Positions 1-43,500 of a stretch of DNA of 64,000 nucleotides are shown piece after piece. The stretch is from positions 5,518,001 to 5,582,000 of the forward strand of contig CM074516.1 of the NCBI GenBank assembly GCA_037379345.1, read 5' to 3'. The position numbers and the translations under genes are program-made. The notes beneath the pieces are model-generated. The model ran no database searches and was not told where the DNA came from. It saw only the letters and a list, made by a program, of their open reading frames with translations. Position 1 is the stretch's first letter. Every line of letters starts with the position of its first letter. The stretch comes from Perna viridis. Taxonomy: Eukaryota.

Positions 1-80
1 ATGCTATTGTTTTCATATGTTAATTTGCTCTTAACTGAAACAAACACTCAACCCTCGAGGTAAAATAAGAAGGATAATTA

Positions 81-160
81 TCTGTATAATACTAGGTACA
101 TGTAATGTGCTAGTGTGTTATAAATCAATTAGCACTTACATGTGCTTGGAATTATGCAGA
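81..160 (+). ncRNA. pre-miRNA-like hairpin, type A (predicted 5p 92-114, 3p 130-151)
   Basis: TCTGTATAAT-A-CTAGGTACATGTAATGTGCTAGT-loop-ATTAGCACTTACATGTGCTTGG-A-ATTATGCAGA; CTAC at 169-172. Confidence 0.75.
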
Positions 161-238
161 TTTTCTTTCTACAGTTAACCCAACTTTCATTTTCTTTATT
201 TATTTTCAATTTTAAGTTAATCATTTATGAAGCATCTT

Positions 239-314
239 AAAGTGTTCTGCTTTTAGTACATGTTAGTGCTAGTGTTGGACTATACCACTAGTGCACCAAT
301 GAGTGGTTCATTTT
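239..314 (+). ncRNA. pre-miRNA-like hairpin, type C (8-nt deletion in 3' arm)
   Basis: 5' arm CTTTTAGTACATGTTAGTGCTAGTG; 3' arm lacks the ATTTCTAT seen in the copies at 1455 and 2254. Confidence 0.55.
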
Positions 315-406
315 GGAGCAAACACATCTATGATTACTGAATTTCTCATTGTTAATTGAAAAAAATAATTCTTAGCTTTTTTATCACCAAGTATTTTCTA
401 CAATTA

Positions 407-488
407 GCTCTTGACATTTCCAAGTACATATAATGTGCCAGTGTATATAATGCTACTAGCACTTACATGTGCTTGGAAAAGTGTGGGC
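407..488 (+). ncRNA. pre-miRNA-like hairpin, type B (predicted 3p 457-478)
   Basis: TTTCCAAGTACATATAATGTGCCAGT-loop-ACTAGCACTTACATGTGCTTGGAAA; CAAC at 494-497. Confidence 0.75.
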
Positions 489-713
489 ATAAACAACTCT
501 CTTTAACAAGCTTTCATTTAGAAACACACAAACACACAGGGATAAATTTCACCAGTGATTCTACTTTGTACCATCATCTATATGTCAATGTCTATGTAAG
601 CGTTTTTTGTATGAATGATTTTATGACTGCTGAGTTATGTATGTTTTAATCAAAAACTTCCTTCTATCATTTGTTTTGCCCTATAAGCACATCGTAGATA
701 ATGTGATTTGCTT

Positions 714-791
714 AGTGTACTGCTTTTAGTACATGTAAGTGCTAGTGTTTAATTAACCACTAGTCCTCAGGTGTACAAAAAGTGTTGCACT
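714..791 (+). ncRNA. pre-miRNA-like hairpin, type C'
   Basis: AGTGTACTGCTTTTAGTACATGTAAGTGCTAGTG...CACTAGTCCTCAGGTGTACAAAAAGTGTTGCACT; CTAC at 798-801. Confidence 0.65.
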
Positions 792-918
792 TTAAAGCTA
801 CTGATTTCAGGTCATCTTTCAACATTTGTTTTTTTTTTATAATATGTTTATTTGCATTCCAACTTAACCATTTACTCCCCAAAATATCAAGGTTGCAAAA
901 GACCATATCTAAAAATAG

Positions 919-998
919 TCTGCATAATTCTGGGCACATGTAATGTGCTGGTGTGCAATTAATCAATTAGCACTTGCATGTGCTTGGAATTATACAGA
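919..998 (+). ncRNA. pre-miRNA-like hairpin, type A
   Basis: Paralogue of 81-160; GGCAC replaces GGTAC (U:G to C:G pair). Confidence 0.7.
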
Positions 999-1088
999 TG
1001 CTCTTTTTCAGAAATCCAAACTTAACTTTGATATTCTGTCCTTCAACTTGTTTTTCATGTTGCTCTTCATTGATGATTCAAACATCTC

Positions 1089-1175
1089 AAAGTGCTCTAC
1101 TTTTAGTACATGGTAGTGCTAGTGGTGAAATATATCACTAGTATTTCCCTGCACTCATCATGAGTGGTTCATCTT
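1089..1175 (+). ncRNA. pre-miRNA-like hairpin, type C
   Basis: CTTTTAGTACATGGTAGTGCTAGTG...CACTAGTATTTCCCTGCACTCA. Confidence 0.6.
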
Positions 1176-1253
1176 TTAAGTTATTCCATGACAAATATCA
1201 TACCAAAGAAAACAGTGGTTCAGATTGGTATTTTAGAAGTATATTCTTCAATG

Positions 1254-1334
1254 GCTCTGACATTACCAGGTACATATAATGTGCCAGTGTATATAATTCT
1301 ACTAGCACTTACATGTGCTTGGAAATGAATGTGC
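1254..1334 (+). ncRNA. pre-miRNA-like hairpin, type B
   Basis: CCAGGTACATATAATGTGCCAGT...ACTAGCACTTACATGTGCTTGG. Confidence 0.7.
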
Positions 1335-1454
1335 TATGTAAGAAATGTTCCACTGACACTTGTATGTAACATTATGTATGTGATTTTCTTTCTTAATTTT
1401 CAATTCTAACAAGTTTTTTTAATGTAGCTAGTCATTTATGAAGCAAGCATCTTA

Positions 1455-1537
1455 AAGTGTTCTGCTTTTAGTACATGTTAGTGCTAGTGTTAAAACATAC
1501 CACTAGTATTTCTATGCACTAATGAGTGGTTCATCTT
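1455..1537 (+). ncRNA. pre-miRNA-like hairpin, type C
   Basis: AAGTGTTCTGCTTTTAGTACATGTTAGTGCTAGTG...CACTAGTATTTCTATGCACTAATGAGTGGTTCATCTT. Confidence 0.7.
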
Positions 1538-1621
1538 CAAAGCAATTCCATTTTTATCACAGCATGACAAATTTCATATCAAAGACCACAGATATGTAGA
1601 TCAGTATTTTTTTCTACAATG

Positions 1622-1702
1622 GCTCTTACATTTCCAAGTACATATAATGTGCCAGTGTATATAATTCTACTAGCACTTACATGTGCTTGGAAATGAATGT
1701 GC
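1622..1702 (+). ncRNA. pre-miRNA-like hairpin, type B
   Basis: CATTTCCAAGTACAT...ATGTGCTTGGAAATG. Confidence 0.7.
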
Positions 1703-1878
1703 TATGTAAGAATTGTTCCACTGACACTTATGTGCCATTATCTATTGGTAATGAAGCATGTAACACTTTGCCTGAATATCACTTTTATCACTGCTTAATA
1801 ATGCCTATTTTTAACATCAAAAACTTTTTTCCTATATATATATGTCTGCCCTAATGAGCTTCTTTTGAAAATATACTT

Positions 1879-1953
1879 AGTGTACTGCTTTTAGTACATG
1901 TTAGTGCTAGTGTAATAGACAACTAGCTCACTTGACCAAAATAGTGTTTCACT
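1879..1953 (+). ncRNA. pre-miRNA-like hairpin, type C' (diverged 3' arm)
   Basis: Invariant 5' arm; 3' arm AACTAGCTCACTTGACCAAAATAGTG. Confidence 0.55.
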
Positions 1954-2062
1954 TTAAATATTTTGATTTCAGTTTTCTATCATATTGTATATTGCCTTTA
2001 CACTTCAACCATTTACTCACCTCAATACTAAGTTGCAAAAAGATCATTCATCTGAAAATTTG

Positions 2063-2142
2063 TCTACATAATACTAAGTACATGTAATGTGCTGGTGTGC
2101 AATTAATCAATTAGCACTTGCATGTGCTTGGAATTATGCTGA
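2063..2142 (+). ncRNA. pre-miRNA-like hairpin, type A
   Basis: CTAAGTACATGTAATGTGCTGGT...ATTAGCACTTGCATGTGCTTGG; CTAC at 2150-2153. Confidence 0.7.
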
Positions 2143-2253
2143 TTTTTTTCTACAGTTAACTGAATTACACAACAACTTTTTCTTTTTTAATTTTCAATTG
2201 TAAATTTTGAAGTTTTTTTAATGTAGCTAGTCATTTATGAAGCAAGCATCTTA

Positions 2254-2336
2254 AAGTGTTCTGCTTTTAGTACATGTTAGTGCTAGTGTTGAAATATACC
2301 ACTAGTATTTCTATGCACTAATGAGTGGTTCATCTT
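2254..2336 (+). ncRNA. pre-miRNA-like hairpin, type C
   Basis: Near-identical to 1455-1537 except in the loop. Confidence 0.7.
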
Positions 2337-2634
2337 CAAAGCTATTCCATTTTTATCACAGCATGACAAATTTCATATCACAAATTTCAAAAGACCACAG
2401 AAATATAATCCTACTAGCACTTACAAGTGCTTGGCAAAGTGTGAGCATAAACATGTACATAACCTCACTAGTTTTTACCAGCTTATTGAAAAAAAAAACA
2501 TAAGCTTCTGATAAAATATGCCACAACGCTTTAATTTTTGAAGATCATTAAAAACTTCTATTATTTGTTTTGCCCTATTAGTGCTTCTAAGAAAATGTAA
2601 TTTGCTTAGTGTACCGTTGTTAGTATATAATAGC

Positions 2635-2712
2635 CTGCATAATACTAAATACACGTAATGTGCCGGTGTGCAATTAATCAATTAGCACTAACATGTGCTT
2701 GGTATTATACAG
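2635..2712 (+). ncRNA. pre-miRNA-like hairpin, type A (3p UAGCACUAAC variant)
   Basis: CTGCATAATACTAAATACACGTAATGTGCCGGT...ATTAGCACTAACATGTGCTTGGTATTATACAG. Confidence 0.6.
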
Positions 2713-2809
2713 ATTCTCTTCTTCAGAAATCCAAACTAAACTAGAACTTTAAATTTCTTTCAACCAGTTTTTCGTGTTGCTCTTTATTTATGATTCAAAC
2801 ATCTCAAAG

Positions 2810-2884
2810 CACTTTTAGTACATGTTCGTGCTAGTGTTGAAATACACCACTAGTATTTCTATGCACTAATGAGTGGTTCATCTT
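2810..2884 (+). ncRNA. pre-miRNA-like hairpin, type C
   Basis: CACTTTTAGTACATGTTCGTGCTAGTG...CACTAGTATTTCTATGCACTAATGAGTG. Confidence 0.6.
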
Positions 2885-3262
2885 TAAAGCTATTTAGTTT
2901 GTATGACAACATGACAAATGTGATATAAAACACAACAGGAGTCAGATTGGTATTTTGTAAGCATATTCTACAATGGCTCTAAGTACATGTAATGTGGCAG
3001 TGTATATAATCCTACTAGTGCTTGGAAATGTATGGGCATAAACAACCACTCAACAGTTTTCATTGAGAACCACATGATTAGAGCAGGTTGATTCTTTTAT
3101 TTAATCTTAGTGTTTGGGATAAATCAGTAATACTTGTAATGCAATTATTCATTCTCCGCTATATTTTTTTATGACTGCCAAGTTTGCTTGCTTTTAACAT
3201 CAAATCTTTCCTGCTTATATTTTACGCCTTCTTTTAGCATTCTAGGAAAATGCAATGTGCTG

Positions 3263-3341
3263 AGTGTAATGCTTTCAGTACATGTTAGTGCCGGTGTAAA
3301 ATTGGACCACAAGTACTTATGTGTATTTAAAGTGTTTCACT
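3263..3341 (+). ncRNA. pre-miRNA-like hairpin, type C' (diverged)
   Basis: AGTGTAATGCTTTCAGTACATGTTAGTGC...GTACTTATGTGTATTTAAAGTGTTTCACT. Confidence 0.55.
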
Positions 3342-3504
3342 ATAGACTGATTCAATTCCTTTGTTAATTGTTATCTATCATTTGTTACTTGCCTTTATTT
3401 GCATTTAAACTTCACCTTTTCTCATCAATATGGTAACATAAAGATTACCATTTGTATAATATTAGGTACATGTATTGTGCTGTTATGCAGCAACCAATTA
3501 GTAT

Positions 3505-3735
3505 TAACATGTGAATGGAATCATGTGGATTCTTTTTTACATATCCTAATTAGCATATGCATTGAATCATGTGGATTCTTTTTTTACATATCCTAATTAG
3601 CATGTGCATGGAATCATGTGGATTTTTTTTTTACATATCCTAATTAACATATGCATTGAATCATGTAGATTCTATTTTACATATCCTAATTAAGATGTGC
3701 ATGGAATCATGTGGATTCTCTTTTACATATCCTAA
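3505..3735 (+). repeat. ~46-47 bp minisatellite, 5 copies, arising from the 3' arm and flank of a decayed type A hairpin
   Basis: Units CATRTGCATKGAATCATGTGGATT(C)TnACATATCCTAATTAR; the CATATCCT motif ends at 3547, 3594, 3641, 3687 and 3733. Confidence 0.9.
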
Positions 3736-3771
3736 CTATACAATAACTTTTCATGATGTTCTTCCTTCTAA

Positions 3772-3850
3772 AAGTGTTCTGCTTTTAGTACATGTTAGTG
3801 CTAGTGTTGAATTATACCACTAGTATTTACATGCACTAATGAGTGGTTCA
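3772..3850 (+). ncRNA. pre-miRNA-like hairpin, type C
   Basis: Invariant 5' arm; 3' arm CACTAGTATTTACATGCACTAATGAGTGG. Confidence 0.7.
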
Positions 3851-3917
3851 ACAAAGCCATTCCGCTTGTATGAGAAAAATGATTCAGACTTGTATTCTGT
3901 AAGCATGATCTACAATT

Positions 3918-3990
3918 GCCCTAAAGTACATATAATGTGCTGGTGTATATAATCCTACTAGCACTAACATGTGCTTGGGAAAGTGTTAGC
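3918..3990 (+). ncRNA. pre-miRNA-like hairpin, type B (lower stem shortened)
   Basis: AAGTACATATAATGTGCTGGT...ACTAGCACTAACATGTGCTT. Confidence 0.55.
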
Positions 3991-4282
3991 ATCTACATGC
4001 ACATAACTCACTGGAATAATACCAGTTTTTAAAAGAAAAAAACACTAAACAATATAGAGCTTTATATCTTAGGGTTATTGATCAACCATACAACAGAAAT
4101 TGTTTATGCTACTAGTTTTTTTATTGTTTTTGATTTTAGTATAATAACATTGTATGTACAACAAAGTAATTTGACTTTTCTATGCTGATTTATACACGTT
4201 TTTAAACCAAGAACTTATAAAATTTCCCTCTTCTAACTTTATCCTTTTCACTCTGAATAAAGAACATGCAATTTGTGTATGC

Positions 4283-4356
4283 GAGACACTTTTAGTACAT
4301 GTTAGTGCTAGTGTAAAATTGGACCACTAGTACTTATGTGTACTAAAAAGTGTTTT
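4283..4356 (+). ncRNA. pre-miRNA-like hairpin, type C' (near-perfect stem)
   Basis: GAGACACTTTTAGTACATGTTAGTGCTAGTG-loop-CACTAGTACTTATGTGTACTAAAAAGTGTTTT; CCAC at 4366. Confidence 0.7.
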
Positions 4357-4478
4357 ATTTTGAAGCCACTGATTTCACTTAAATTGACACACATTCTCAT
4401 ATTGTGATTATCTCACTATATATGTATTCCTCCCACAAAAACTACCCTCATCCACAAAGTAAAATCATAAAAAATAAT

Positions 4479-4556
4479 CTGTATATTACTAGGTACATGT
4501 AATGTGCTGGTGTGCAATTGATTAATTAGCACTTACATGTGCTTGGAATTATGCAG
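4479..4556 (+). ncRNA. pre-miRNA-like hairpin, type A
   Basis: CTAGGTACATGTAATGTGCTGGT...ATTAGCACTTACATGTGCTTGG; CTTC at 4565. Confidence 0.7.
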
Positions 4557-4971
4557 TGGTTCAACTTCAAAGCTATTGCATTTTTATTGCAGCATGCTGA
4601 TTCTTTGTAAAATTGTGTTTTTATTGGCATATTATGCATGAGCTTTGGATTATTTTCTTGAAGATTGAAATTGTTCTGCATTAAAATGAATGCATAATGT
4701 GACTACATGTATAAACATTCTATCATTTACATGTGCCAGGTGTAAGTTTGGAACTTCACTTGCAAGAAAGTTATCTTCCACTACTCTTGTTGCTTCATTT
4801 CAATCATCTTGAGTTTTGTTAATACACAGTATATTGCCAGTAATAGATTGTACCAATATTACTTTATTTGCCAATGAGCGAGTCATCAAGTTATTGATTT
4901 CAAGAAAACTTAAAAATGCTTGAAAAAATGGGCATTAGTATAAGCTCTCATTTGTTTTCCTTGCCAAAAAT

Positions 4972-5051
4972 AAAGCTCTGCTCTTAGTACATGTTAGTGC
5001 TAGTGTTGAATTGTATCACTGGTAATTATATGTTCTAAGAAGTGGTTCTTT
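4972..5051 (+). ncRNA. pre-miRNA-like hairpin, type C
   Basis: CTCTTAGTACATGTTAGTGCTAGTG...CACTGGTAATTATATGTTCTAAGAAG. Confidence 0.65.
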
Positions 5052-5130
5052 AAAAGCAACACATTACTCACTTCTGTCACTGTAAACAGTTGGTACAACA
5101 CATCTGTATTAAACATGATTTAATTCTGCA

Positions 5131-5260
5131 GCTCATACATTTCCAAGTACATATGCAGTGCCAGTGTGTATATATGTTCTAAGAAGTGGTTCTTTAAAAG
5201 CAACACATTACTCACTTCTATTGAAAACTAGCACTTACATATGCTTGGAAATGTGTGGCT
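5131..5260 (+). ncRNA. type B hairpin with a 49-nt insertion in the loop
   Basis: Both arms intact; 5171-5219 is an exact copy of 5027-5075. Confidence 0.5.
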
Positions 5261-5476
5261 AGAAACTACAAATGAAATCCATCCACAAAAATCTAAAAAA
5301 ATGAGCACACTGGCCCATCTATTTTTTCTTCTTATATCTCTCTAGCATGAATTATCTCGAAAGGTTTCACAACCATTCGAAATGCTTTTTATTCTTAAAT
5401 AGAGAAGCAAACATCCTTACTCTCACAAATATACCTTTCCAAGGTGGAATTCAATCCAGTGAAGTGAAAGCTTTGA

Positions 5477-5553
5477 TGTTCTGCTTTTAGTACATGCTAG
5501 TGCTAGTACTAAATTGAACTACTAGTTCTTACATGTCCTTAAAAACAGTTCAT
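5477..5553 (+). ncRNA. pre-miRNA-like hairpin, type C/C'
   Basis: CTGCTTTTAGTACATGCTAGTGCTAGTA...TACTAGTTCTTACATGTCCTTAAAAACAG. Confidence 0.55.
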
Positions 5554-5755
5554 ATAAAAGCAATTCAGTTTTAAGTCATTGTTTGCATAGGTAGTGTGCA
5601 ACTTGTACATGCTTGTAGTACATGCTTGTGCTACTGTCAGATCTATATTGAGGTGTTCATTTCAATGATTTTCTCTTTACTGTCATATCTATTTTAAATT
5701 GATATGCAATGAACAATTCAAAAGTCTAGTATTTTCATCTACACTATAAATTTAA

Positions 5756-5835
5756 CTCAAACATTTCCAAGTACATATTATGTGCCAGTGTATATAATCG
5801 TACTAGCACGTAAATGTGCTTGGAAAAGTGTGGGC
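5756..5835 (+). ncRNA. pre-miRNA-like hairpin, type B (3p UAGCACGU variant)
   Basis: TTTCCAAGTACATATTATGTGCCAGT...ACTAGCACGTAAATGTGCTTGGAAA. Confidence 0.65.
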
Positions 5836-5997
5836 ACCTACACATAAGTATACATTAAATTCACTTACTTTCCCTAGTTAATTTGTTTTATTCAGATTAT
5901 ATTGATGGGTGCTCTACCTTAAGTACATGCTTAGTAATCATTAGGTCTTTTCTTTTTTGACTAAATGTTATCCTTCTTATGCTTTCTGAGCTTCTAC

Positions 5998-6085
5998 ACT
6001 GTATAAAACTAGGTACATGCTGAAATATGTGCTTTAGTGCAGTAAAAAATCAACTAGCACTTACCTGTGCTTGGTGTTATGCAGT
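5998..6085 (+). ncRNA. type A hairpin, 5' arm with insertion
   Basis: ACTGTATAAAACTAGGTACATG...CTAGCACTTACCTGTGCTTGGTGTTATGCAGT. Confidence 0.5.
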
Positions 6086-6360
6086 CATCTATTATCAAGA
6101 CTGGACAAATACAAGTATGGATCTAGGCCAATAGTACGTTTCACAAATTTGCTATCACTAGTTCTCTCATGCAAGGCACCCCTACTATGATGGTTCAAAC
6201 AGATATTCAGTGTTCTACTTATAGTACACATTAGTGCTAGATTTGATTTGTACTATTAGCACTATTTAGTACTTGTGATTCATATGAATCAATTCGAACT
6301 TCGAACTACAGAACACGTCTTTTGTTTTCTTTGATCTATTTATGCTATTGCAAAAAATAC

Positions 6361-6443
6361 AATCTATATAATGCTAGGAACATGTAATGTGCTGGTGTGC
6401 AATTATCAACTAGCACTTACATGTGCTTTGAATTATGCAGATT
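6361..6443 (+). ncRNA. pre-miRNA-like hairpin, type A
   Basis: AATCTATATAATGCTAGGAACATGTAATGTGCTGGT...ACTAGCACTTACATGTGCTTTGAATTATGCAGATT. Confidence 0.65.
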
Positions 6444-6696
6444 CTTTCTAGGAAACCAGGGAAGAGTGAGTGTCTGTCACTGTTTTTCTCAGTTAAATAC
6501 ATCACATTTTACAGTTTGTACTAACTTTTCTTAAAATACATACCATGGCAGTGTATATAATCTTACTAGCACTGACATGTGCTTGATAAAGTGTACTTTT
6601 GAAAAGTTGGTCCTTATACCAGAAATACTTATGGATGCAAGTAATTTTGGGGCATTTCTTAACTAGGGGCCACAATGATATTTATAAGGACTAGCA

Positions 6697-6778
6697 ATCC
6701 TTACCTTTCCAAGTATAAGTAATTTGCTGGTGTGTAAAATATAACTAGCACTTACATGTGCTTGGATAGGTCTGGGTT
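6697..6778 (+). ncRNA. pre-miRNA-like hairpin, type B-like
   Basis: ACCTTTCCAAGTATAAGTAATTTGCTGGT...ACTAGCACTTACATGTGCTTGGATAGGT; 3' arm invariant, 5' arm diverged. Confidence 0.7.
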
Positions 6779-7117
6779 TGTCTCTCTTCTACATCACCAC
6801 TAAAGTACACATTTCAGCAAATGTTGTGGATAAACCTTTAGTCAAAAGTCAGAAGTACTTGTTTATTTATACAATATTGAATGAGGGTTCCACATGTATT
6901 TCAAGACACATTACATCATTGCATCTCATCTTAATTTAAGGACTATTGTTCTGGTCAAGTTAATTATTGCTGAACATTCCAAGCATATTTTTCCAAGTCA
7001 ATTTGAAATCCAAATTCCAAGCATAAACTTTCATAACACAGATAGTGTGCTGAAGGAAACAAAATGAACTAGCACTAACCCTTGCTCTTTAACACTCTTT
7101 TTCCACCATTATAAAAC

Positions 7118-7200
7118 ACATGGTCTGCCTTTAGTACATGACAAGTGCTAGTGTTTATATATACTACTAGCACTAAGCATGTTCTATAAGTATGTCATGT
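7118..7200 (+). ncRNA. pre-miRNA-like hairpin, type D (3p UAGCACUAAGCAUGUUCUAUAA, 7168-7189)
   Basis: ACATGGTCTGCCTTTAGTACATGACAAGTGCTAGTG...TACTAGCACTAAGCATGTTCTATAAGTATGTCATGT; CTTC at 7205. Confidence 0.7.
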
Positions 7201-7385
7201 TTCACTTCTCTGGGTGTTATATACTATCTCTTATGTCTTAAATATCTGAAGCAAGCACTTGTTATGTCCTCAGTTGTTGGTAATGTAGAAATTTACCCCT
7301 TAATAAGTTGATACATACGATACTGGTAGTTCTTGACACATGTTGGATTTAATATTTCAACTGTCCAGCTGGTAAAGTTTACTTA

Positions 7386-7460
7386 TCTGTATAATTCCAA
7401 GTACATGTGCTGGTGTGCATAAAAAAATTTAGCACTTACATGTGCATGGGATTATGCTGG
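7386..7460 (+). ncRNA. type A hairpin, 5-nt deletion in 5' arm
   Basis: TCTGTATAATTCCAAGTACATGTGCTGG...TTAGCACTTACATGTGCATGGGATTATGC. Confidence 0.5.
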
Positions 7461-7618
7461 TAACAGTGCACTGTTCTTTCATAACAAAGCACGGTCAACT
7501 ATAGTGCTTGTTTACATTAACTATTAACACCATGTATGTTCTACTAGGAAGTTGATGCACATCTTCCACTAAATGTAAATTACCATTTTTACACTATTAC
7601 TACTATCATTAAAAAAAA

Positions 7619-7700
7619 GCATAGCCTGCTTCTACTACATGACAAGTGCTAGAGTCTATATTTCCTACTAGCACTAAGCATGTTCTACAAGTATTTCAAG
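7619..7700 (+). ncRNA. pre-miRNA-like hairpin, type D
   Basis: TACATGACAAGTGCTAG...CTAGCACTAAGCATGTTCTACAAG; CATC at 7706. Confidence 0.6.
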
Positions 7701-7870
7701 TTTAACATCTTCCATTTATAAAACTAACAATACCTTTTCTTTAACAATGTCTTTGGCACTAATCAACTTCATAATATTTAATAACAGGCAAATCAATCTC
7801 TGACTGAGTATGCACATTTTTTATTCATGCTACTGAAATGTTGACTTCAGCAGTTCAGTTGACTTTCTAA

Positions 7871-7948
7871 CCTGTATAATACTAGGCACATGTAATGTGC
7901 TAATGTGTTATCATCAATTAGCATTTCATGTGCTTGGAGTTATGATGG
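7871..7948 (+). ncRNA. pre-miRNA-like hairpin, type A
   Basis: CTAGGCACATGTAATGTGCTAAT...ATTAGCATTTCATGTGCTTGG. Confidence 0.6.
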
Positions 7949-8287
7949 TGACAGTGCAGTTGCAGTTTTCCATCATTCAAAAAATCTACTAGAATTACCA
8001 CTAGTATCACTGTATCACTTCTGTATTTTGAATTACTCAAAAATGTATGGTATGCTTTTAGTACATGACAGTATCTTACTAACACTAAGCATGTTCTACA
8101 AATATGTCAAGTTGCAATTCAGAAGAATACTTAATTTCTCCACTATATAATTCTTTCACAATCTTTATGTATGTAAGAATATCACTGGCACTAAGCACAC
8201 TCTTCTAGTAAACTACAAAGCACACCTTCACCTTACATAAACAGTGATTAGATCTTTTTTTCAATTTTACAATTTTATCAGTTTCTC

Positions 8288-8370
8288 TATGATGTATTAC
8301 TTAGTACATGACAAGTGCTAGTGTTAACATATACTACTAGCACTAAGCATGTTACTACAAGTATGTCATG
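8288..8370 (+). ncRNA. pre-miRNA-like hairpin, type D
   Basis: TATGATGTATTACTTAGTACATGACAAGTGCTAGTG...TACTAGCACTAAGCATGTTACTACAAGTATGTCATG. Confidence 0.65.
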
Positions 8371-8499
8371 ATGTAATCCTTCTACTCAGTGAAACTTCCT
8401 GTACAGAATTCTCAGTACCTTACTAGCACTAAGCATGTTCTATTAACTATACCCAATTTACAATTTTATCACTTTCTTCAAAATGTATCACTTAAGAAT

Positions 8500-8582
8500 G
8501 CATAGTCTGCTTCTAGTACATGACAAGTGCTAGTGTTTACATGTATTTCTAGCACTAGGCATGTTCTACAAGCAAGCCATGT
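8500..8582 (+). ncRNA. pre-miRNA-like hairpin, type D
   Basis: TGCTTCTAGTACATGACAAGTGCTAG...CTAGCACTAGGCATGTTCTACAAGCA; CATC at 8587. Confidence 0.7.
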
Positions 8583-9212
8583 TTCTCATCTTTCACAAGT
8601 AAGTATGTGACAAACACTGGTGCAAAAATAAACTATTAGCAGTTAGCATGTTCAAGAACTATGACATGTTCATCTTCATCAAATATTTCCCCATTTAACC
8701 TCACTTTTTTACATTCTTGTAGTGAGTTGTCTCAATGTCATTATCTTGCTTATTGTGATAATGCCATGTTAGGAGTGTGTGGTACATATTTCATTTAATA
8801 TGGAGTTCGTGGGATTCGTTTGGAAGTTGTTTGACTTCTGTCGACTAGTTTTGTCATACTTGGAGTGTCAGTCAGGGTTACATGATCTTGACAAATCATT
8901 GCACTTCTTTTGTTATCCCCTTATCATTGCCTGTTCTATTTATAGAACTGTTAAAAATAAAATAGTTGCACTGTGAGAGTTCTAACAATACGATATTTTC
9001 ATTTGTATTGGTGATTTTAAATGTAGAAAGAGTAACAGTCAATGTGCTGTCCTTGTAAATCACAAAATAAATGCTTTCTGCAAAAGTATGTAAATTGTGC
9101 TAAAGCACTTGTTTTGTGCTTATATCCAGTCTGTAATAAATATACTTAACTTGCATGTGTGATTTTCATGTCAAGTGACCGAGGAATACACCCAATTTCC
9201 ATTGTTAATACA

Positions 9213-9296
9213 TTCTCTTTACTTCTCCTGGTACATTATAGTGCTGGTGTGTAAAGTTTTACTAGCACTTACATGTGCTTGGAAAAGTTTGGGATT
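9213..9296 (+). ncRNA. pre-miRNA-like hairpin, type B-like
   Basis: ACTTCTCCTGGTACATTATAGTGCTGGT...ACTAGCACTTACATGTGCTTGGAAAAGT; CTTC at 9301. Confidence 0.7.
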
Positions 9297-9404
9297 CCTG
9301 CTTCATTTTCCAAATCTGTGATGGTGTTTTTCTTTCTTGTGCACCTGGTGCTGAGTTATCTTTTAGTCTGGTTCATTTATTTTGGAAATTTGACCCATGA
9401 ACAG

Positions 9405-9628
9405 TCTGGAACTGTTGTGATGATTTGTGTTTCTAGAAGCTATCAACTGGTACTGTTACAATGATGTGTTTCTAAAATGTATCAACTGGGACTGTATGGA
9501 TGATTTGTGTTTCTAGAAGATATCAACTGGGACTTCCGTGGTGATTTTTGTTTTTAGAAGCTATTAACTGGGACTGTTTGGATAATTTGTGTTTCTAGAA
9601 GGTATCAACTAGGACAATGATTTATGTT
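9405..9628 (+). repeat. ~41-bp minisatellite, ~5.5 copies
   Basis: Repeated CTGGGACTGT...GATTTGTGTTTCTAGAAGNTATCAA. Confidence 0.85.
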
Positions 9629-9660
9629 CCTTAATGTTCATGTGCATTTCAACATAGTTT

Positions 9661-9746
9661 TATTGTGTTATGCCTTTAGTACAAGGTGAGTGCTGGTTAG
9701 ATGATATAACACCTGCACTAATCTTGTTCTGTATGTATGACAAATA
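9661..9746 (+). ncRNA. most distal, diverged type D-like hairpin
   Basis: TAGTACAAGGTGAGTGCTGGT...ACCTGCACTAATCTTGTTCTG; CATG/CATG replaced by CAAG/CTTG (compensatory). Confidence 0.6.
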
Positions 9747-10179
9747 AAGATCATCAAGCTCTTCTATTATTTTTGGACATGTTTGTCTTGTTTTAGTTGG
9801 TATAAGGGTTATCTTCACTGTTCGATCTTAGTATGTTTTATTGCTTTTAGTATTGAGTTTCTTGATAATAAGTTAAATATTAAATACTAACTATACTATT
9901 CTTCCTACCTTCTTTTTATCTGGGAATTAAGACCTTGTTTTTGTTAGACATGTTTTGATATGATTCACTAAATCCTGTTAGAAATATTTTTTCAATACTT
10001 TTATCTGAGAAAAAGAGGTGTGCTTATCAGTTGCTTTTGGATTTTGAATTAGCTTACAGAAACAATTAGTACTCTTTCCAGGTAGGTACAGCTTGTTGTT
10101 AAGGTGTTTGTATTCTGTATCTACCTCAAGAGTTTGAATTTGACAATTTTTAGCTTGTTTAAATGTTGTATTTACCCAC

Positions 10180-10460
10180 ATGTCCCAGGTTAGGGGAGGG
10201 TTGAGAGCAGAAAAACTGCGCCACATACTTTTTGTCCCTGTCTCAAGCCAAGTAGCTGTCTTTATTATCCGTTCAATTTTTTTCTATAGATTAGGTAGAT
10301 TTTTGTCAAAGTTTTACACTGGGCCTTTTAAAGCTTGCCTTATGCTATAGAATGATGGGTATTGTCCGTTAAGACCATTTGGTGACCTGAAGAAGTTTAG
10401 TTGTTCGGTGCTTGTAATTTGGTGGAAGACCATCTCATTAGCAATCATACCACATTTTTG
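10180..10460 (+). mobile_element. Degenerate bivalve interspersed repeat (Mg1-like)
   Basis: Motifs GGGCCTTTTAAAGCT, GGTGACC and CTCATTAGCAATCATACCACAT resemble a common mussel dispersed repeat (recalled, not searched). Confidence 0.5.
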
Positions 10461-13400
10461 TAGAACTTAGTTTGGGTTCTGGATGCTTCCTTAATTTCTC
10501 ATGCTTTCAATATATTTTACTAGAAATTAGCAGATTGTGTCCAGTATTAAATTCAGAATAAGGTATTTTTGCCAATATTATTCCTTGCTACATGTATTTA
10601 TGACACCACAGATAAATACAGTTGCATTTGATGACTCTCGAAGAGTTTAATTAAAAGGGAGAATTGGAATTAATCATCCACTGTTCTTTTAAACTGTATT
10701 CAAGTAGGACTGAGTCCTAGTTCATGTCTTCTGTACAAGCTACTTCAACATACATGTATTCATTTTTCACTGCAGAACATTCTACTGACAAATGATCAAG
10801 TACTGGGAACTTGCATTCTATAAGTGTATGTTGTGGTTATAGTAAGTGTTAGTTGGACTTACAATGTCCTTTGTGTATTAATGAAAACTGATCACTCAAC
10901 AATAACATGATTACTGTTTATAGAAATGCAAATGTCTTATATTACATTCAATGATCAAAACTAATACAATAACAACTTTTTCTATGGTAAAACAGTATGT
11001 AAACCTGAAAATTATAACCTTTTGCCATTAAAATTTATGAAATACAATCCCTGAAGATTTATAACAACATGAGGTTCAGTTAAAATAGGTTTCTCTGTAC
11101 ATGATATAAATTACACAGGTCACATGTCTTACCTTTACTTTTCTTCTGTAGCCTTCTTTCTCTTCTCTGCATGCATGCAACTTAGGTTAGACTTAAATTT
11201 AAGGAAAAGGCATAAAAATCTTAATGGTGTTTTCTTCAATTTTGAAATGCATTATTTCTAAATCAAGATTGTACAACATCTTGTTATTCTGATCTTCTTT
11301 ATAATTTACATTTTATAGAACTAGAAATTAGATGTACAGTGCAGAACAATGGTGTACACTTCATTACTTTTTGTTCATTTTCAGACCTGTTAATGCTTCT
11401 TTAAAACAAATCATGTTTTTTTGTCATAATAAGAAGATGATTTGTAAAATTTAGAACATCATTTTATCATGGGTATTGTAGACAGATTCATAGCATAATT
11501 TGCCGTCAAATTTTGTAGGAACTACGGCAAAACAGTCATTGTTAACACCTCCAAAGTTTGTATAACATTATCACAAATCCAAGACAATACAGATATTCTG
11601 ATCATTCTTCATAGCAATATAGATTTTTTTCATGGAGTAGTTATTGTTCAGTTACTGCATTAGAAATTTATTATATTACATTGTCATTGGTGTATAAATA
11701 TGATGTATAATAAGGAAATCTCTTATGTAGCAGTCTTTGTAAGAATCATGCAAAATCTGAAAAATGTGATACACCCCAAAAGGCTACATATTTTTATTTT
11801 TGTTATTGTTTTATGGGTCTATACTTTGAAATGTGTAATTATTCATTCAAATCTGGCTGCACTTAGAAGATAATCAACATTGAAAATCCAATAGATTCCA
11901 TTGTATTTGAGTGTCATTTACTGAGTATCTCCCTTAATTTTGAAATCTACAGTGCATTCTATATACTCTTTATCTCCTAAGAACACTGGATATATGAAAT
12001 ACTGAATGCTAACTTCTGTTTACAATGGCAATTCAAACAAAATGTCAAAAATAAAAATATGTAGGCTTTTTACCCATAAATCACATTTTGCATGATTCTT
12101 AGCTACTTAAAAGTAAATTGGAGAGAGTGAAAGTCTTTGAAATTGGGACCAACCCACCAGCCAATGGTGGTAAAAATAGTGGCTGGCTTGCAGAATTTTT
12201 GCTTCCAAGCCAATGTATCCTATATAAATCTCTTTTCAGATTAAGGGTACGGGCTTGTCTGAAATTAAGATAACAAAAACTCCTTAAGGTTACATTTTTG
12301 TTTTTTTAAGCCATGTGTACAGGTAAAATAACTGTGCAATAAGTAGTATATCATGTAATATTTACATGCCTTACCACTTGTAATCTTCAATTCATTTTTT
12401 CACAATCTAAAAAAAAAAGAAATAGTCACAATTAAAATGAGTCTAATACACAGAAATTGCCAGTGATTAACAGTGATTTTCCAACCCTGGTTTTGGGTAC
12501 GAAATCCCGCCCCATTCTTAAAGAGAAATATGTCCAACTTTTATCATCAAAATTCCTATTTCACTTCATCTCAAGATTTGTACTTGTACATGTACATTAT
12601 TAAAATGGAGATTTTTAAGTGTACCAGTGATACACGTGATGCAAGTCTTCCCTGCAATCAACCGTTTCAAATTTGTCTTCCAGGGGTAACCACATGAACT
12701 ATGGAACAATACAATGGAAACTGCAATGGATCACTGCAAGGATTTTAATTGTATGAAAAATTCTCGACCTTGTGTTTATAGATGTTCATCTCCTAAAGTC
12801 ACTATTTCCACGCTCTTTCTGCCAATTGCATGGGTTGGGACCCCTTCTCCAAAGCATGAATTTTATTGTAGGGGTGAAACAATTCCACAAGGTACCGAAA
12901 AACAATAAAATTTTTTCCCTTTTCAGTGCACGGTGCAACTTGTCAAGTTTCCAATTGGGACCAGATGTCATTATATTTGGTAGTTCCCAATAAATCTTTA
13001 ACACAGAGGTTAGAACTAAGTTCATTTACAAAATGTTGTCTACATGACATGGAAAATAACAGAAAATTTAGATTTAAGCTTAACATATTACAATGGTAAC
13101 CAACATTTAATATTTTCTATCTTTACTTTCTTAGATACACGAGTATCTGCTGGTCCATATCATGTATAAAGGCCACTATAAAATTATATGCACCCCATCA
13201 CTTTCAAACTAAAAATGTGACATCATGATTTTAAAAGTGCCGTATAATTTTCTCTTTTCTTCCACATGATAACTCCAGTGTAAACTACATTTGAAAACTA
13301 AAATATAACAATTTGTTCATGATACAAATGGATGGGTTGATAGTCTCTACAATTACAATGCCAAGTCTAAATAATTTTTTGACACAAACAACTGGTATAT

Positions 13401-22786: not shown

Positions 22787-23671
22787 TTACAAAACAATAC
22801 AAACAGCTGAGCCGTCCACGGAATCTATAGTGTCTGACGGTCTTTTAATCACGTTACGACGATGCTCTCCGACCAATTCCTCTGGATTTTTTAGCAAATG
22901 GAGTATGTGCTTATGGCCATACTTGATGGCAGCACCATAAAGAGTCAAAGGCGAATAAGGTTCAAAGTAACTCTCTCTGTGTGAAAGGTCAGACGTTGCA
23001 AGATCTACTTCGTGGTGAAGTAACAAATAGCGCATGCGTTCCTCATCACCTGCTATGGTCGCGTGAGCAAACTCAATGGAAGCCTCATTTTGCAATAACA
23101 TTTTAACAATTTTGTCACATGCGTTTTGTTCCTTGGCGTATTCAATCAGAGATTTGTTATTCCTAGAAATGTTAATCCTGCACCACGACTTGACTAGGAC
23201 GTTCGTTTTGAAAGCTTTGTCATTTTCAACGGCATCCCAATACCCTGGCGCGAATTTTTGATAGGCGCTGGTTAATTCAAAACCTGATGGCCCACTGACA
23301 CTGCGGAGTAATTCCAGTTCGACTTCTTTATCACAAGAAGCGCCGCATTTTACAAGTGCCAGCATAACTTCCATCAGAGCCTTACCGATAGCAAAGTGAA
23401 GAGGTGAGATTCCTTTCATGTCTGGTGTATCTAGTTTTGCCCCCGCGTTTGACAATTGATACACCATTGGGATATATTTTCTTTCAATACCAAACGAGGC
23501 AAATGCGCTAATCACGTGCAGGAAAGATTGGCCAGTTTTAGAACATGTTCTGTTAACATCCTCACCTCCTTTGATGCTAGCTAGAAAGACTAGACTATCC
23601 TTGGACAGAATTCCTTGGAAAAGCTTCGTTTTCACGAATTCCTCCTCATAATCTCGAAGTATTTTATCCAT
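22787..23671 (-). CDS. Intronless ankyrin-repeat protein (294 aa) with C-terminal CaaX (CIVL)
   Basis: Uninterrupted ORF; ANK motifs GEDVN..GQSFLH, GAKLDTPDMKGISPLHFAI...LVKCGA and LYGAAIKYGHKHILHLL; ends SAVCIVL*. Confidence 0.85.
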   Translation of the reverse strand: MDKILRDYEEEFVKTKLFQGILSKDSLVFLASIKGGEDVNRTCSKTGQSFLHVISAFASFGIERKYIPMVYQLSNAGAKLDTPDMKGISPLHFAIGKALMEVMLALVKCGASCDKEVELELLRSVSGPSGFELTSAYQKFAPGYWDAVENDKAFKTNVLVKSWCRINISRNNKSLIEYAKEQNACDKIVKMLLQNEASIEFAHATIAGDEERMRYLLLHHEVDLATSDLSHRESYFEPYSPLTLYGAAIKYGHKHILHLLKNPEELVGEHRRNVIKRPSDTIDSVDGSAVCIVL

Positions 23672-26600
23672 ATAGTGTCTAATGGAACCACTACGGTACC
23701 CATCGGTACGCCAAAATCAACCTGCCACCATAAAACGACCTGCGGTCGAGTTGTTTGACGACTGATAAAACACAGTCGTTTAGATAGATGTTAATTGAAT
23801 AGTGCCAATATCACACTCAATTAAATAGTTTTCATTAGGAATTTCTATTAAGTTAAACTGGCCTTATTTAACATATCAATATTGTATCCAATTAATTAAA
23901 TTCACAGACAAATAATTAAACATCCCTTCAGTTAAACACTAACACTTCACATTTCATTTTGTTCTTTACGGAATCGCATGTCAATTCAAACTGAAGAACT
24001 GCTACCGAACGAAACAGACTTAGATATTTTGGTAGTGAAGTTTCCAATATACATAACAGTAAATACACAAACAATGGAAAATATTTCAACTGTACGATGT
24101 GTACATATAGGTAAAGTTATTTAAATCTATTCACCGCGTATTTATACATTCAGGCCTGTACAAGCACACTTCTATAATCAAATTTAAAACCCTATTGAAA
24201 AGAACAACGGTGAAAGATTGTGGTATATGGAAGATTGGTTGCCTTTTCAATATAAATTTTTCATAACTTTTCTCTAATTCGCTTTCTGTCGATATCTCTG
24301 CTATTATGTTCAGTTTTTGCCATTCAGAGAAGCAATTCTTCTCAATAATTAATCATTTACGCTAATTTGAAGCAATCAAATAACCAAAGAAAGTATCTTT
24401 ATATAGCTCTAATTCTCCATAGTTATCTTAATTAACCCCCAATTTATCATTCGTTTGGTAATACAAACGTGCTGAAATCAAGAATTTTTTTTTCTCCAAG
24501 GAAATCTGAGTCATTGCTCTATTAAAAAACAGCATAGTGAACTTGTTTTCAGTTGGAAATTGCGGAACTATTTTGTTTTGGGCTTTGCATGTTTGTGTGA
24601 GGGGGTTAAATTGATGTGCCACTTGTCTTGGATTCCATTTACATATATTACATAAAAGTTGTGCCACAAATCTTGGAATTGTCTTTTTTAAGACGACTGT
24701 ACATCTAACACATCTGCTGTGTGGAAATATAGTGTTATTTGGTCAATTATGTAGTGTAGGATTTCAGTAAGCACGAAAGAGGCATGGAATCCAGTTGCAA
24801 ACTCAACTCGTTTCATGTGCTTTATGTATAAACGTAACAGAAAATAATGCTACGGTGGGAAATGAAAAACCAGAAAACTAGTATCTTCTGGAGGACTAAA
24901 TCGGACTATCAGTCCTAACCACCTAACACTATTTTCTCAGAGTTATTGTGTATATATGCATGTATAATACATCACTTTCTTGATAAAATCGCGGACACTC
25001 TCCCCCAAATAATTAAAAGCTGGGTGCAGACGTAGGCTAGCTAACTCATCGCAGACAACACTCGTGGTCAGTTCACCCACCATTGGCTGTTATAATCTAT
25101 CGTTTTGGTGTTGCTTAGAGTTGTAAATGTGCTTATATATGTCGGCCAAATAACTTCAGAGCTTACCTTAAGCGCCGATCTTAAATAAACTTTATTCTTG
25201 TTACCCCCCCCCCCCCACACACACACACTTTTGCGGGAAGTGTATACAGATCACACCCGTAGTCAGGACCCCTCCCCCTTAAAGTCGAAGTTCTGTTTGA
25301 TTTGTGACGATTAAAGTCGAGGTGTAGGACTCCCTCCGCGAGTCTAAGACCCCCTCTAAAAATTCATGCCTACGGGTCTGTTGAGATCGTGCCGTACGTC
25401 CGCCCCAAGATTCAAATTCGGCCGCAATGTTTTTTTTTTATTGTTCAGTTATATTATTATTGGGTAGTATATTCCCACTAGTGTACAAGATCGTGTGTCA
25501 ATAATTATAGAAAACCAATAAACGACTAGATTCATGACAAAGGTTAAAAAATGTAGACAAAACATTGACAAAGTATATACTCCTTCAGTAAACAGTAATT
25601 ACGATCATTATTTTTTGTTGTTGGTGTCTGTATTAACTAAACCGTTTTCTACATATTTTAATATTTTAATACATAAGTAATACTCAGATCTGATAATATT
25701 CTGTCCTTGTCAACAGAAATTTCATTTATCGTACAAAATTAATGCCATTTAAATATCTTCAAACTAAGAAAATATGCGGATACATCACAAGGAGTTCGTG
25801 AATTTAGATATATGCCGAAAATTCGAAGTATAAACTTTTATCAGCATTCGACCTTAATTTGTTATAATATTTATAAAATAGAGAAGTATTGGTAAACGAA
25901 GTTGCATTGAGGCAAGAAAGTCCCTGGTTTAGGGCTGATTGCAAAGCTATGTGAAGCGCAGAAGATCAACAGTAATGAAATTTGACAAAACTGGATATTT
26001 TTGGCCTTTAAGAGCAAACCAGCTAACATCATTGACTTTAATAGCCATTTTAATGATTTGTACTATTCAAGTAATCTTTAAACCATAACTGGTACATGAA
26101 AGATTAGTGTCAAGGTGAAAGTTTAGGTTAAAAGCATGCATCATTCATTTTGCAACATCCATGTAAAAGCTATAGAATCAATGGCCTGTTTTTGTAACGC
26201 TAAACGTTGAAGTTCGGGGTCAGAGGTTAAAATGAATTCGTCAAATTTTCAAACAAGGAAATTTGTAAGGACTTAGGCACCGACCATTTTTATATTGAGG
26301 GGGGAGGGGGTAAAAAAATAATGTTGTATTCTGTTTTTCATAAGAAAAAGTTTAGGAATAAAAAAAAAGTAGAAACAAAAGGAAAAAGGAGAGGAGAGGA
26401 ATCTCATGTACATATAGTGAATGTATCATAAACTGCCATTTAACGTGTTAAATTATGTAGAAAGAAGAATGTAACAAATGTCTTTAATATCAACATTTTA
26501 CGGTTTATAGTCGCAAAATTCATGATGTTATAATGAGCAACTAAATGGATATCAAAATGCTTAAGGAGGGTAGCCCTGCTTGATACAAGTTTCCAGTTAC

Positions 26601-40500: not shown

Positions 40501-43500
40501 ATAGATAATCAGTTGACAATTTTAACTCATTGCACAACACCAATTTTATGTCAAGATAATTTGAGCACAAGTTGTTGTATAAAACACCATCAAGATTAAT
40601 TAATGGGATACATGTTTCATCCAAAAAAAAAAAAAAAAATCAACAAATGCAACCTGAGGAATGAGAACTGAAAAATATATTCTTAAAGCCTTCCTATATT
40701 TGTAAGTAATTTTTCATTCTTTATTGCAGATTTTTGCAAGATTTTGTTAGACATTTTTGTATTGCTTATACATTTACAATTTCATGTTTACTGTCTAAGA
40801 TGGCATCTTCAATTTTTTTTTAATTGCAATTTGTACCTTACAGTACCACTGCCAAGTCAGAAGAGAATCCATCAAGGATACCTGTAGTCAACCAACTAAC
40901 CTTCCTTGGTCAGGCCTTCAGCAGAATGGTGGATCTTTGTTTAGGACATATGACACAGGTTTGTTAGCATTATGTTAGTTTTTTTAGACATACAGTACAC
41001 CTTGGCTGCATCTTGCCTTTCCCCACTGTCCACGATGGAAGTGGATACATAACTTTCTATATTTGGTAACATATATTTGGTTTACATTATTTCTCCATAA
41101 TTATTTATTAAATTTAAGTTAAGATTTCAACATGACAGCTTTAGTAAGCATGTTCAGATCTTAATTTTAGCATAGAGAGTGGTGACTTAATTTAAGTCAA
41201 GAATACGCTGAAATAGAATCAGTTTTTCTTATGAAATCTGTAGAAACTTGGAAAATGTTAAATGGTTGGAAAAGTCTCACAGAAATTCAATCAACTCCCA
41301 GTTTTTAAAAAGTCAAATGCATCTTTAATCACCAGCTTTGAAAGTAAGAAATTGTTATTTTGTTGCTTTGACATTTAGACTAAAGAAATGTTTCCCCACC
41401 AGGATGAAAAATGTCAACTCAAGACCAAGTGTATGTAATGCTTGAGAAGTGGAAAAATATTATAGTAAACTTAACTAAAACATGAAAAAAGTCAAAAAAA
41501 TTATCACATCTGAAGCTGATATTACAATAACTGGAATCTGGTATCTTTGTTTATGTCTGAATAAGGTCTATTGCTGATGTCTACTACAGTATGCCTTGCA
41601 GTGACCATCTTTCATGAATATTAGGAATAAGTATGACCAGTGTAATGTTAATCTTTTATTTCTACATTTCAGAAAATCATCACTACATTAGATGAAGCTA
41701 ATGAACCAGCAACATTAGCTACAGCAATGAGAACCATAGTTACTCTAGGGTTAGAGGGAGAACATATGTGTTACATTATTGCAAGGGTAAGCTTGTAAAT
41801 TTAGGACGTGGGTGTTATAATATCGCAAAAGCATGGAAAGCACAGTATTATATCAGAGTGGGGAGAATACTGCAACTTATTCATGATTATATCCTCTATT
41901 TTTGTTGAAAAACCAAATTATCTTGCATGTCACCCAGCCTTACAGCTAGTTTCTTTTAATGAATGATGAATTTTTAATTAATATCTCCTTTATTTTTCTA
42001 ACACAGGAAGGAGGAGTAAGAGCCTTGTTAGAAATCTGCAGGACTGAATCATTAGAGTTTGCACATTGTCAAGCACTGAGAGCTTTAGCCACCATATCAT
42101 GTGTTGCAGAGAGTCTGTTTGAAATAGAAAAGGTAACATGTGCATTAATTTACCACATGTAATTCTATGCTCTAAACCTTGTTGTGTCTAGTTTAATATT
42201 CATAAATGAGTTCATTTAAATAATTAGAGAATAATCCCAACTGTCTACACCAGACAGGAAAATTTAATTGTTTACAAAATCATACTATTTGTAAGCTAAC
42301 TATATGAAGTAGGTTTCTTATTTTAAAGTTTTTTGTCTTTCCGAAGTTTTGTTACAATGGAAATATATTTGCTGTGATAAAGTTTTAGTTTATTCCTATA
42401 TGCAGGAAGGTGGTGTAGAGACATTGATAGAGATTTTATGTGACACTACTGTAGGAGAAAAGGTCAGAGGTGAAGTAGCAGGTGTTATTGCACAGATTAC
42501 TTCCCCTTGTTTAGAAAATTACCAACAGATGTCAGACCTAGTTGACAATTTAGAGGATCTTCTCAGGGCTTTATTAGGTATTTTTATATTACAGTCGAAC
42601 TTCACTCGCTCGAACTCAGATGGCTCAAACACCTGGGATTTCTCGAACACAATCCAAAGTACCAAACTTTTATACTATATAATTAATAGAAATAACCTTT
42701 AATTTCTCGAACACTTGAACCAACTTGTCAGTCCGTTCAGTAATAAATCTTAGAGAATAACCCACACTAACTTGAACTTGTCAGCTTGGGTAATAAAAGG
42801 TGTGCAAAACTGAAACACTATCACTAATCAAAGTGTCATTTTAGTTAATTACAGGTAATATTTTGTTTATCACTAATTAGGTAGTTTTAATATAACATAA
42901 TACTGAGTGATGTTGGAGAGTGTTCCAAAGTTGGCATAATGTAAGCATAAAAAAATTAGATGGAAACAAATTATTGACCAAGGAACTTTAACTCTGAAAG
43001 TTTTTCAAAAGCAAACACATCATTTTTAATGTCCATAAATCAAAATAACTATCCAAAAACTTATTAACAGAGAACAAATAAAACCTTTGTAGAAAGTATG
43101 CAATTTTTAACTATAAAGCCAATGTCCGAAAGATATCCAGAAAAATAATGAACTTACTTAATGAACTCCCAGTAACTCTAACACATTTCAATGATCCCAT
43201 GGAGTTTGAGCTACCAAGGTTTGACTGTATATATGAAGAAGAATTAAAATAAAAATAATATTTGAGGTTTCTTCTTATCTGGCATAGAATGATTTGTGCA
43301 ACATTGCATATTTTTGGTGAGAGGTACAATGTAACATGAAATTTCCACATATTTGTCTTCACAAGTAAATATCAAACTCCTCATGAAAAAGTACCCATGG
43401 GACAATAATGCAGCGTTGAATTTCTGTTCAAAATAAATTGAGAGAGCACACTCTAGCATTGATTCTGTATAGGACTGGGGAGCACACAAAAAATTTAAAA

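Follow-up and report, generated by a model that had tools for sequence, protein, structure and literature searches.

A tandem array of AGCACU-seed hairpins in Perna viridis, probably an embryonic microRNA cluster shared with the oyster, carries a positioned CNNC motif

High-copy tandem arrays of a single seed with onset in the early embryo have been described for zebrafish miR-430 and the vertebrate embryonic clusters, and the authors of a study of the annelid Capitella teleta call a tandem embryonic cluster on CAPTEscaffold_488 "reminiscent of miR-430" (PMC8915122). In the Pacific oyster, 11 hairpins of the kind treated here appear in the supplements of Xu et al. 2014 (PMC4138081, Tables S5 and S7), in tandem groups on three scaffolds; the available parts of that paper file the members as oyster-specific novel or rejected candidates, and call clustered novel microRNAs unrelated rather than one family. 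Here we analyse 64,000 nucleotides of the bivalve Perna viridis (GenBank assembly GCA_037379345.1, contig CM074516.1, positions 5,518,001 to 5,582,000 of the forward strand; hereafter the window), the plus (+) strand of which holds a tandem cluster of such hairpins. We argue, with considerable confidence, that this cluster is likely to be one polycistronic microRNA gene of early embryos, in which selection probably maintains the CNNC motif as a putative recruiter of an SRSF3-type protein. What is new is a cluster with an AGCACU seed on the 3' (3p) arm that, judged from the arm sequences, is common to this bivalve and the oyster; it is likely an embryonic cluster that bivalves in general share. 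A preliminary description of the window had noted the Microprocessor motifs and missed this wider distribution of the hairpin family. Since the last common ancestor of bilaterians probably had such motifs already (MirGeneDB 3.0), to meet a CNNC in a cluster of mollusc hairpins is expected and confirmatory rather than new, and the motifs confirm the array as a real microRNA cluster.

The cluster lies between window positions 92 and 9734. It has 33 paralogous hairpins with both arms, at a median spacing of about 250 nucleotides (nt), and another 12 copies reduced to partial 3' arms; it thus runs on to a final copy beyond position 9304, where the preliminary description had ended it. Its members, all on the + strand, are as follows.

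92..9734, + strand: tandem cluster of precursor-microRNA-like hairpins (33 two-armed copies, 12 partial 3' arms)
92..151, + strand: class A example; predicted 5' (5p) arm 92-114, UGU at 114, predicted 3p arm 130-151, seed AGCACUU
930, 2074, 2645, 3462, 4489, 6374, 7882, + strand: further class A copies
252, 1102, 2266, 2814, 3784, + strand: further class B1 copies; 4983 is a related copy with a CNNC
1467..1525, + strand: class B1 example; 3p seed AGUAUUU in 5 copies, CNNC at +16 to +18 in 0 of 6 core copies
725..782, + strand: class B2 example (3p seed changed); others at 1890, 3274, 4291, 5486
420..478, + strand: class C example; others at 1266, 1634, 3922, 5767, 6709, 9227
7130..7189, + strand: class D example (seed AGCACUA); others at 7631, 8300, 8512
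9675..9734, + strand: last copy, a distant one placed with class D
2415, 4721, 5229, 6055, 6567, 7070, + strand: partial copies, 3' arm blocks (span of all such blocks 2415..8658)
7430, 7525, 8080, 8186, 8424, 8637, + strand: partial copies, 3' arm blocks, continued
near 2983, 5147, 5618, + strand: 5'-arm-only pieces

The 3p seed is AGCACUU in 10 copies and AGCACUA in 7 (17 of 33 intact), and changed in the remaining 16, five of which read AGUAUUU. The window shares with the oyster hairpins a 3p arm of the form N-AGCACU(U/A) and a similar 5' arm ending in a UGC core (arms compared by eye; PMC4138081), and differs from them in its at least 33 copies within less than 10 kb and in its 16 changed seeds.

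Because structure alone leaves the Drosha cut ambiguous by 1-2 nt, we took the cut register from oyster reads. The oyster hairpins (m0214, m0215, m0314, m0316, m0317, m0338, m0341, m0342, m0345, m0347 and m0348) have a 3p arm that starts one base before AGCACU in 10 of 11 cases, the eleventh being without reads; eight of these arms are 22 nt and two 23 nt long, and the 5p arm begins 4 nt before a GUAC-like core (PMC4138081). For m0214, one 5' end accounts for 194 of the 203 reads from the 3p arm and another for 801 of the 831 from the 5p arm (summed by hand; PMC4138081). The rule adopted, a 22-nt 3p arm beginning one base before AGCACU, was applied to every window copy blind to CNNC, so that the register of the hairpin at 92..151, for example, is set by homology to oyster reads; the oyster precursor entries are themselves too short to cover their own CNNC zone.

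In human primary microRNAs, a CNNC at +16 to +18, about 17 nt from the cut, acts through SRSF3 (Kim 2018, PMC6004053). On the oyster-derived register, 13 of the 33 two-armed window copies carry a CNNC at these offsets:

169..172, + strand: CTAC at +18
494..497, + strand: CAAC at +16
798..801, + strand: CTAC at +16
2150..2153, + strand: CTAC at +17
2721..2724, + strand: CTTC at +17, new here
4366..4369, + strand: CCAC at +17
4565..4568, + strand: CTTC at +17
5057..5060, + strand: CAAC at +16, new here
7205..7208, + strand: CTTC at +16
7706..7709, + strand: CATC at +16
8587..8590, + strand: CATC at +16
9301..9304, + strand: CTTC at +17
9752..9755, + strand: CATC at +18 after the last copy, beyond the range described before

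The ten sites of the preliminary description are all correctly placed, at +16 to +18, and the three at 2721, 5057 and 9752 had escaped it. The copies it named as negative (near 1455, 3918 and 6361) do lack the motif, although its "several" such copies are in fact a majority. Its C-poor background is not borne out, positions 1-9800 being AT-rich with 17.0% C and 15.4% G, and so not specially poor in C.

The enrichment is considerable. From a background of 8.2% per 3-nt window, 2.7 copies would be expected to carry the motif; dinucleotide shuffles of each copy's own flank, the comparison that the preliminary description had called for, give 3.3, and none of 200,000 simulations reached 13. Only 2 of 33 copies have a CNNC at these offsets in the antisense control. 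In a scan of 2000 tests covering all spaced base pairs in all 3-nt windows from +12 to +38, CNNC at +16 to +18 ranks first (p 2.3e-6, Bonferroni 0.005), followed by CNNC at +15 to +17; no other control for paralogy used here is as good, because common descent would raise any motif. When the register is shifted by -2, -1, 0, +1 and +2, the count over the 33 copies is 10, 12, 13, 9 and 6, falling to 5 at +3, so that it peaks at zero shift of an independently derived register, in agreement with the earlier view that motifs and cut register support one another; the motifs locate the cut to within about one base. Collapsing paralogues by average linkage on hairpin identity, with the CNNC zone excluded, leaves a median p of 8e-7 for 28 groups, 0.001 for both 16 and 11 groups and 0.015 for 7 groups, and the motif is found in 6 of the 7 coarse hairpin groups.

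The motif also recurs elsewhere. A metagenome scan gave 27 loci, of which four (L001, L010, L014 and L020) are tandem arrays of the same hairpin; the other 23 were dropped as single matches without the family hairpin around the match, and one duplicate and one incomplete L020 row were excluded before counting. A CNNC lies at +18 in 11 of 17 copies of L001, at +17 in 11 of 12 of L010, at +15 in 13 of 13 of L014, and in L020 at +15 in 3 of 4 copies and at +18 in one, where the chance of a CNNC per array is about 10% in a 4-nt window. L014 and L020 may come from one species; a protein search meant to place the lineage of L014 gave no match. The arms are conserved between the distant arrays and the spacers are not. 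That the positioned CNNC is under selection is thus supported by its place at the top of the 2000 tests, its survival of collapse to about 11 groups, its recurrence in the four outside arrays and its peak on the oyster register.

The hairpin at 92..151 has a z score of -11 against base shuffles; at least 16 duplex pairs form in 29 of the 33 copies, and the same 29 have z scores from -3.4 to -11.4, whereas the four copies with fewer pairs (3' arms at 289, 1924, 3499 and 6257) range from -1.2 to -1.7. In the predicted lower stem of the window copies, pairing is 0.5-0.7 at +7 to +10 and 0.3-0.4 from +11 onward, and the mean falls past +10/+11 in the window, L001, L010 and L014 alike, which corresponds in predicted structure to a lower stem of about 11 base pairs (bp). 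The + strand is the more stable in 27 of 33 copies, with a mean of -28.5 kcal/mol compared with -21.0 for the minus (-) strand. Among 16 hairpins chosen from the window and the four outside loci, 72.6% of cells pair, as against 30-47% with slid partners. The covariation score was reached by 1 of 500 shuffles, and pairing is retained despite changes on both sides in 50 cells, a figure that 2 of 500 shuffles reach, with the pairs counted on a structure set from the first copy, a choice that favours that structure. RNAalifold, run on an earlier alignment with an incomplete L010 row, predicted only the upper 8 pairs; the hairpins were then realigned.

Expression is documented in the oyster, where reads of the family run from blastula to D-larva, with 0-3 in the egg and 0 in all eight adult organs (PMC4138081). 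By analogy, the window cluster likely provides an early zygotic pulse, and the scarcity of RNA-seq reads on it, described below, fits expression confined to the early embryo without testing it. Contigs of four presumed-RNA runs (X7, X10, X13 and X18, of 18 such) cover only a repeat near 5297-5351 and give no evidence on expression. Two interspersed high-copy repeats, at 11720-12000 and 5297-5420, account for nearly all RNA reads on positions 1-12000.

A number of observations weigh against this interpretation. CNNC at +16 to +18 is absent from 20 of the 33 copies and present in 4 of the 12 partial ones; copies with an intact seed do not carry it significantly more often than the others (9 of 17 versus 4 of 16, p 0.10). 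With collapse to 5 groups significance is lost (median p 0.057), the 90th-percentile p is already 0.056 at 11 groups and 0.11 at 7 groups, and under single linkage the 3' flanks chain into 3 groups at 60% identity; the enrichment that was to be sought after correction for paralogy weakens at the coarsest level. The outside arrays are homogenised, each counting for one or two observations, and so amount to three or four independent ones in all; L014 and L020 have their CNNC mainly at +15, an offset at which, in the human system, SRSF3 failed to stimulate the full Microprocessor (PMC6004053). The basal UG at -14/-13 occurs in only 2 of 33 window copies. Two of the five covariation measures (pairs with a double change, and pair types) are no higher than in shuffles. 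As to expression, three raw RNA-seq runs of P. viridis, of unstated stage, have a mean depth below 1 on the cluster outside the known repeat, and the oyster egg library is shallow, one read equalling 14 reads per million (PMC4138081).

The alternative that survives best grants that the hairpins are microRNA genes and holds that CNNC and UGU were merely inherited from the founder, with no continuing selection. All copies are paralogues, and the CNNC-negative majority and the fading significance at 5 groups are what such a history would leave. However, descent favours any spaced base pair equally, yet a motif and place stated beforehand rank first of 2000. The 18 bases around the 13 CNNCs are 32% identical over 78 pairs, as against 29% for random sequence, which bears out the preliminary remark that the flanks otherwise differ. 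The two central bases vary while the Cs hold, as had also been remarked, in five forms (CTTC in 4, CTAC and CATC in 3 each, CAAC in 2, CCAC in 1). Among arrays the offset moves, and yet stays within +15 to +18. For the CNNC and UGU together we consider inheritance alone improbable.

Restricted to UGU, the same alternative stands at about even odds. A UGU starts at 5p positions 21-25 in 27 of the 33 copies in the window, in every copy of L010 (12), L014 (13) and L020 (4), and in 5 of 17 of L001; the statement that nearly all window copies have it is roughly right, though weaker than claimed as an argument for selection. The motif represents one inherited set of columns, with its U and G mostly paired to the 3' arm (pairing probabilities 0.89 and 0.72 for the first two bases), and stem constraint and descent therefore explain much of its conservation. 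By eye, UGU is present in 5 of the 11 oyster hairpins and missing in 6 (PMC4138081), among the latter m0316, which has the most 3p reads of the 11. The third base, mostly unpaired, is nonetheless a U in 30 of 33 copies, which gives mild support to selection on the motif; loop column +5 is likewise A in 28 of 33. UGUG is found in 9 of 33 window copies, and position -5, checked by eye for CmR/mGHG, is a C in 19 of the 33 copies in the window but in none of the 46 outside it. Selection for Drosha cleavage, proposed before for both motifs, is thus supported for CNNC and uncertain for UGU.

Compared with the human motif set, the window agrees in its CNNC at +16 to +18 and its UGU at 5p position 22-23, and differs in having no basal UG; CNNC is found in about 60% of representative human primary microRNAs compared with 39% of window copies (PMC6004053). 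The enhancement by SRSF3 and DGCR8 that had been cited as known is indeed established in human, and their binding has been demonstrated in human only (PMC6004053). A second alternative, which we regard as less probable still, takes the signal as real and lets another RNA-binding protein read it, or has it keep the 3' flank unpaired and pyrimidine-rich, with SRSF3 not the mollusc reader. The next signals after CNNC in the scan (CT, TNNC and TNC at +17 to +26) and the use of +15 by two arrays would suit this, and the literature searched held no mollusc biochemistry. However, the significance of CNNC exceeds that of the next motif about 50-fold, and the five forms of its central bases are as the SRSF3 motif predicts.

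That the array is a palindromic repeat, a satellite or the relic of a miniature transposon and no microRNA gene at all, is very unlikely. It has no Rfam match at gathering score and almost no reads in the three raw RNA-seq runs, and broken copies and homogenised arrays are numerous. Against this, reads of the oyster homologues come from both arms and have sharp 5' ends, by which the repeat explanation is largely refuted, arms are conserved between distant arrays where spacers are not, and folding and CNNC are both strand-asymmetric. A functional transcript from the - strand, which does fold into hairpins at many copies, has next to nothing to recommend it given the lower + strand energies, the near absence of antisense CNNC and the match of oyster reads to the + orientation.

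We propose the following mechanism for a polycistronic microRNA gene with a selected CNNC. A single transcript would carry all the hairpins. Drosha-DGCR8 would cut each of them some 11 bp up from the basal junction, at a point 4 nt ahead of the conserved GUAC in the 5' arm; in CNNC-positive copies, an SRSF3-type protein recruited by the motif would help by positioning Drosha at the base of the hairpin. From the product, Dicer would free a 23-nt 5p and a 22-nt 3p RNA, the latter with the seed AGCACU(U/A) in 17 of 33 copies, and the many copies could deliver a rapid pulse of a single seed once the zygotic genome activates. Processing, the cut register and expression from blastula to D-larva are known here from the oyster only; expression in P. 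viridis, the parts played by SRSF3 and DGCR8, the targets and a clearance of maternal mRNA are what we infer.

Further features of the array deserve mention. In the B1 subfamily (window 1102-3842), the 5' arm is better kept than the 3' arm, the seed is AGUAUUU in 5 copies and all 6 core copies lack the CNNC at +16 to +18; arm switching or decay is possible. By eye, the 3' flank of the class A copy 4489 is that of class B1 (window 4548-4600), apparently through a deletion; C-N-N-C words at +7/+10 have thereby moved to +14/+17. A tandem unit of 46-47 nt, present five times, occupies window 3503-3770 and starts within the 3' arm of the damaged hairpin 3462-3520; between the last two hairpins (window 9400-9620) there is also a short tandem repeat, of about 46 nt. 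An AATAAA at 9743-9748, 9 nt past the last hairpin and the sole one on the + strand in 9700-11500, may be a poly(A) signal. DNA contigs of run X1 join the end of a class A copy to the start of a B2 or class A copy (160 to 4286, 163 to 6380), and the end of a class C copy to the start of a class B copy (485 to 2265); these junction orders are absent from the window, and the cluster therefore likely continues to its left.

Outside the window, L014 has an exon-like stretch resembling ATR kinase (2872-3033, - strand, E 0.003) 1.4 kb past the 3' end of its array, which is possibly a synteny marker. An array apparently begins, at its 5' end, on the L020 contig, where some 1.7 kb of sequence precede it; positions 1600-1770 of this contig, which by eye include TATA-like words around 1628 and 1700, form a candidate promoter region. 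Elsewhere in the window lie exons of an inscuteable gene (42313-45554, + strand; Pfam Insc_C, E 4e-11 and 4e-18) and a 309-residue ankyrin-repeat reading frame (22787-23716, - strand), the closest named relatives of which are bivalve; the latter is 74% identical to a protein cluster with Mytilus members and about 50-56% identical to proteins of scallop, clams and pearl oyster.

Outside the bivalves there is a likeness with Capitella. Among the 15 rows listed for its cluster (30 of 91 places in the supplement; PMC8915122), 3p arms start UAAGCAC in 9 (by eye), precursors start CC(U/C)GGUAC in 6, like L010, L014, L020 and the oyster (by eye), and most have a UGU at the 5p end (by eye). Set by eye against L014-type copies, the Capitella 5p arm has 8 identical bases where it starts and 8 where it ends, and the 3p arm has 7 where it starts. 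The Capitella 3p arm differs in starting one base earlier, which gives the seed AAGCAC(C/U) and not AGCACU, and in its arm middles. Judged by eye, the bivalve and Capitella clusters are somewhat more probably homologous than not. Rather more tentative is the possibility of an ancient, repeatedly re-amplified bivalve-annelid embryonic cluster, with the four outside contigs among its members, which would be a trochozoan counterpart of miR-430 with a seed shifted by one base and would clear maternal or early zygotic mRNAs from blastula to first larva.

The comparison with miR-430 itself has limits. Its seed differs from that of the window, so that miR-430 is an analogue at most, and no Rfam match at gathering score ties the window to miR-430/427/302. 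The window 3p seed (130-137 and paralogues) is also the reverse complement of the miR-430/302 seed, probably by coincidence. Oyster expression, unlike that of miR-430, lasts through D-larva in the published tables. In the literature searched we found nothing that names a shared family; MirGeneDB and miRBase lay outside that search and may already name oyster or Capitella members. A full-text search with the arm sequences returned only unrelated human primer papers, and the available supplements of PMC11067994, PMC11701709 and PMC9699675 held no matching arm (file 2 of the last lay outside the search).

The 13 CNNC-positive and 20 CNNC-negative paralogues form a natural series in one locus that suits a test of SRSF3 enhancement in a lophotrochozoan. 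Early transcript clearance is little studied in molluscs, and the cluster supplies a named seed, copy coordinates and a testable stage. If the link with Capitella is true, the family would be older than the mollusc-annelid split.

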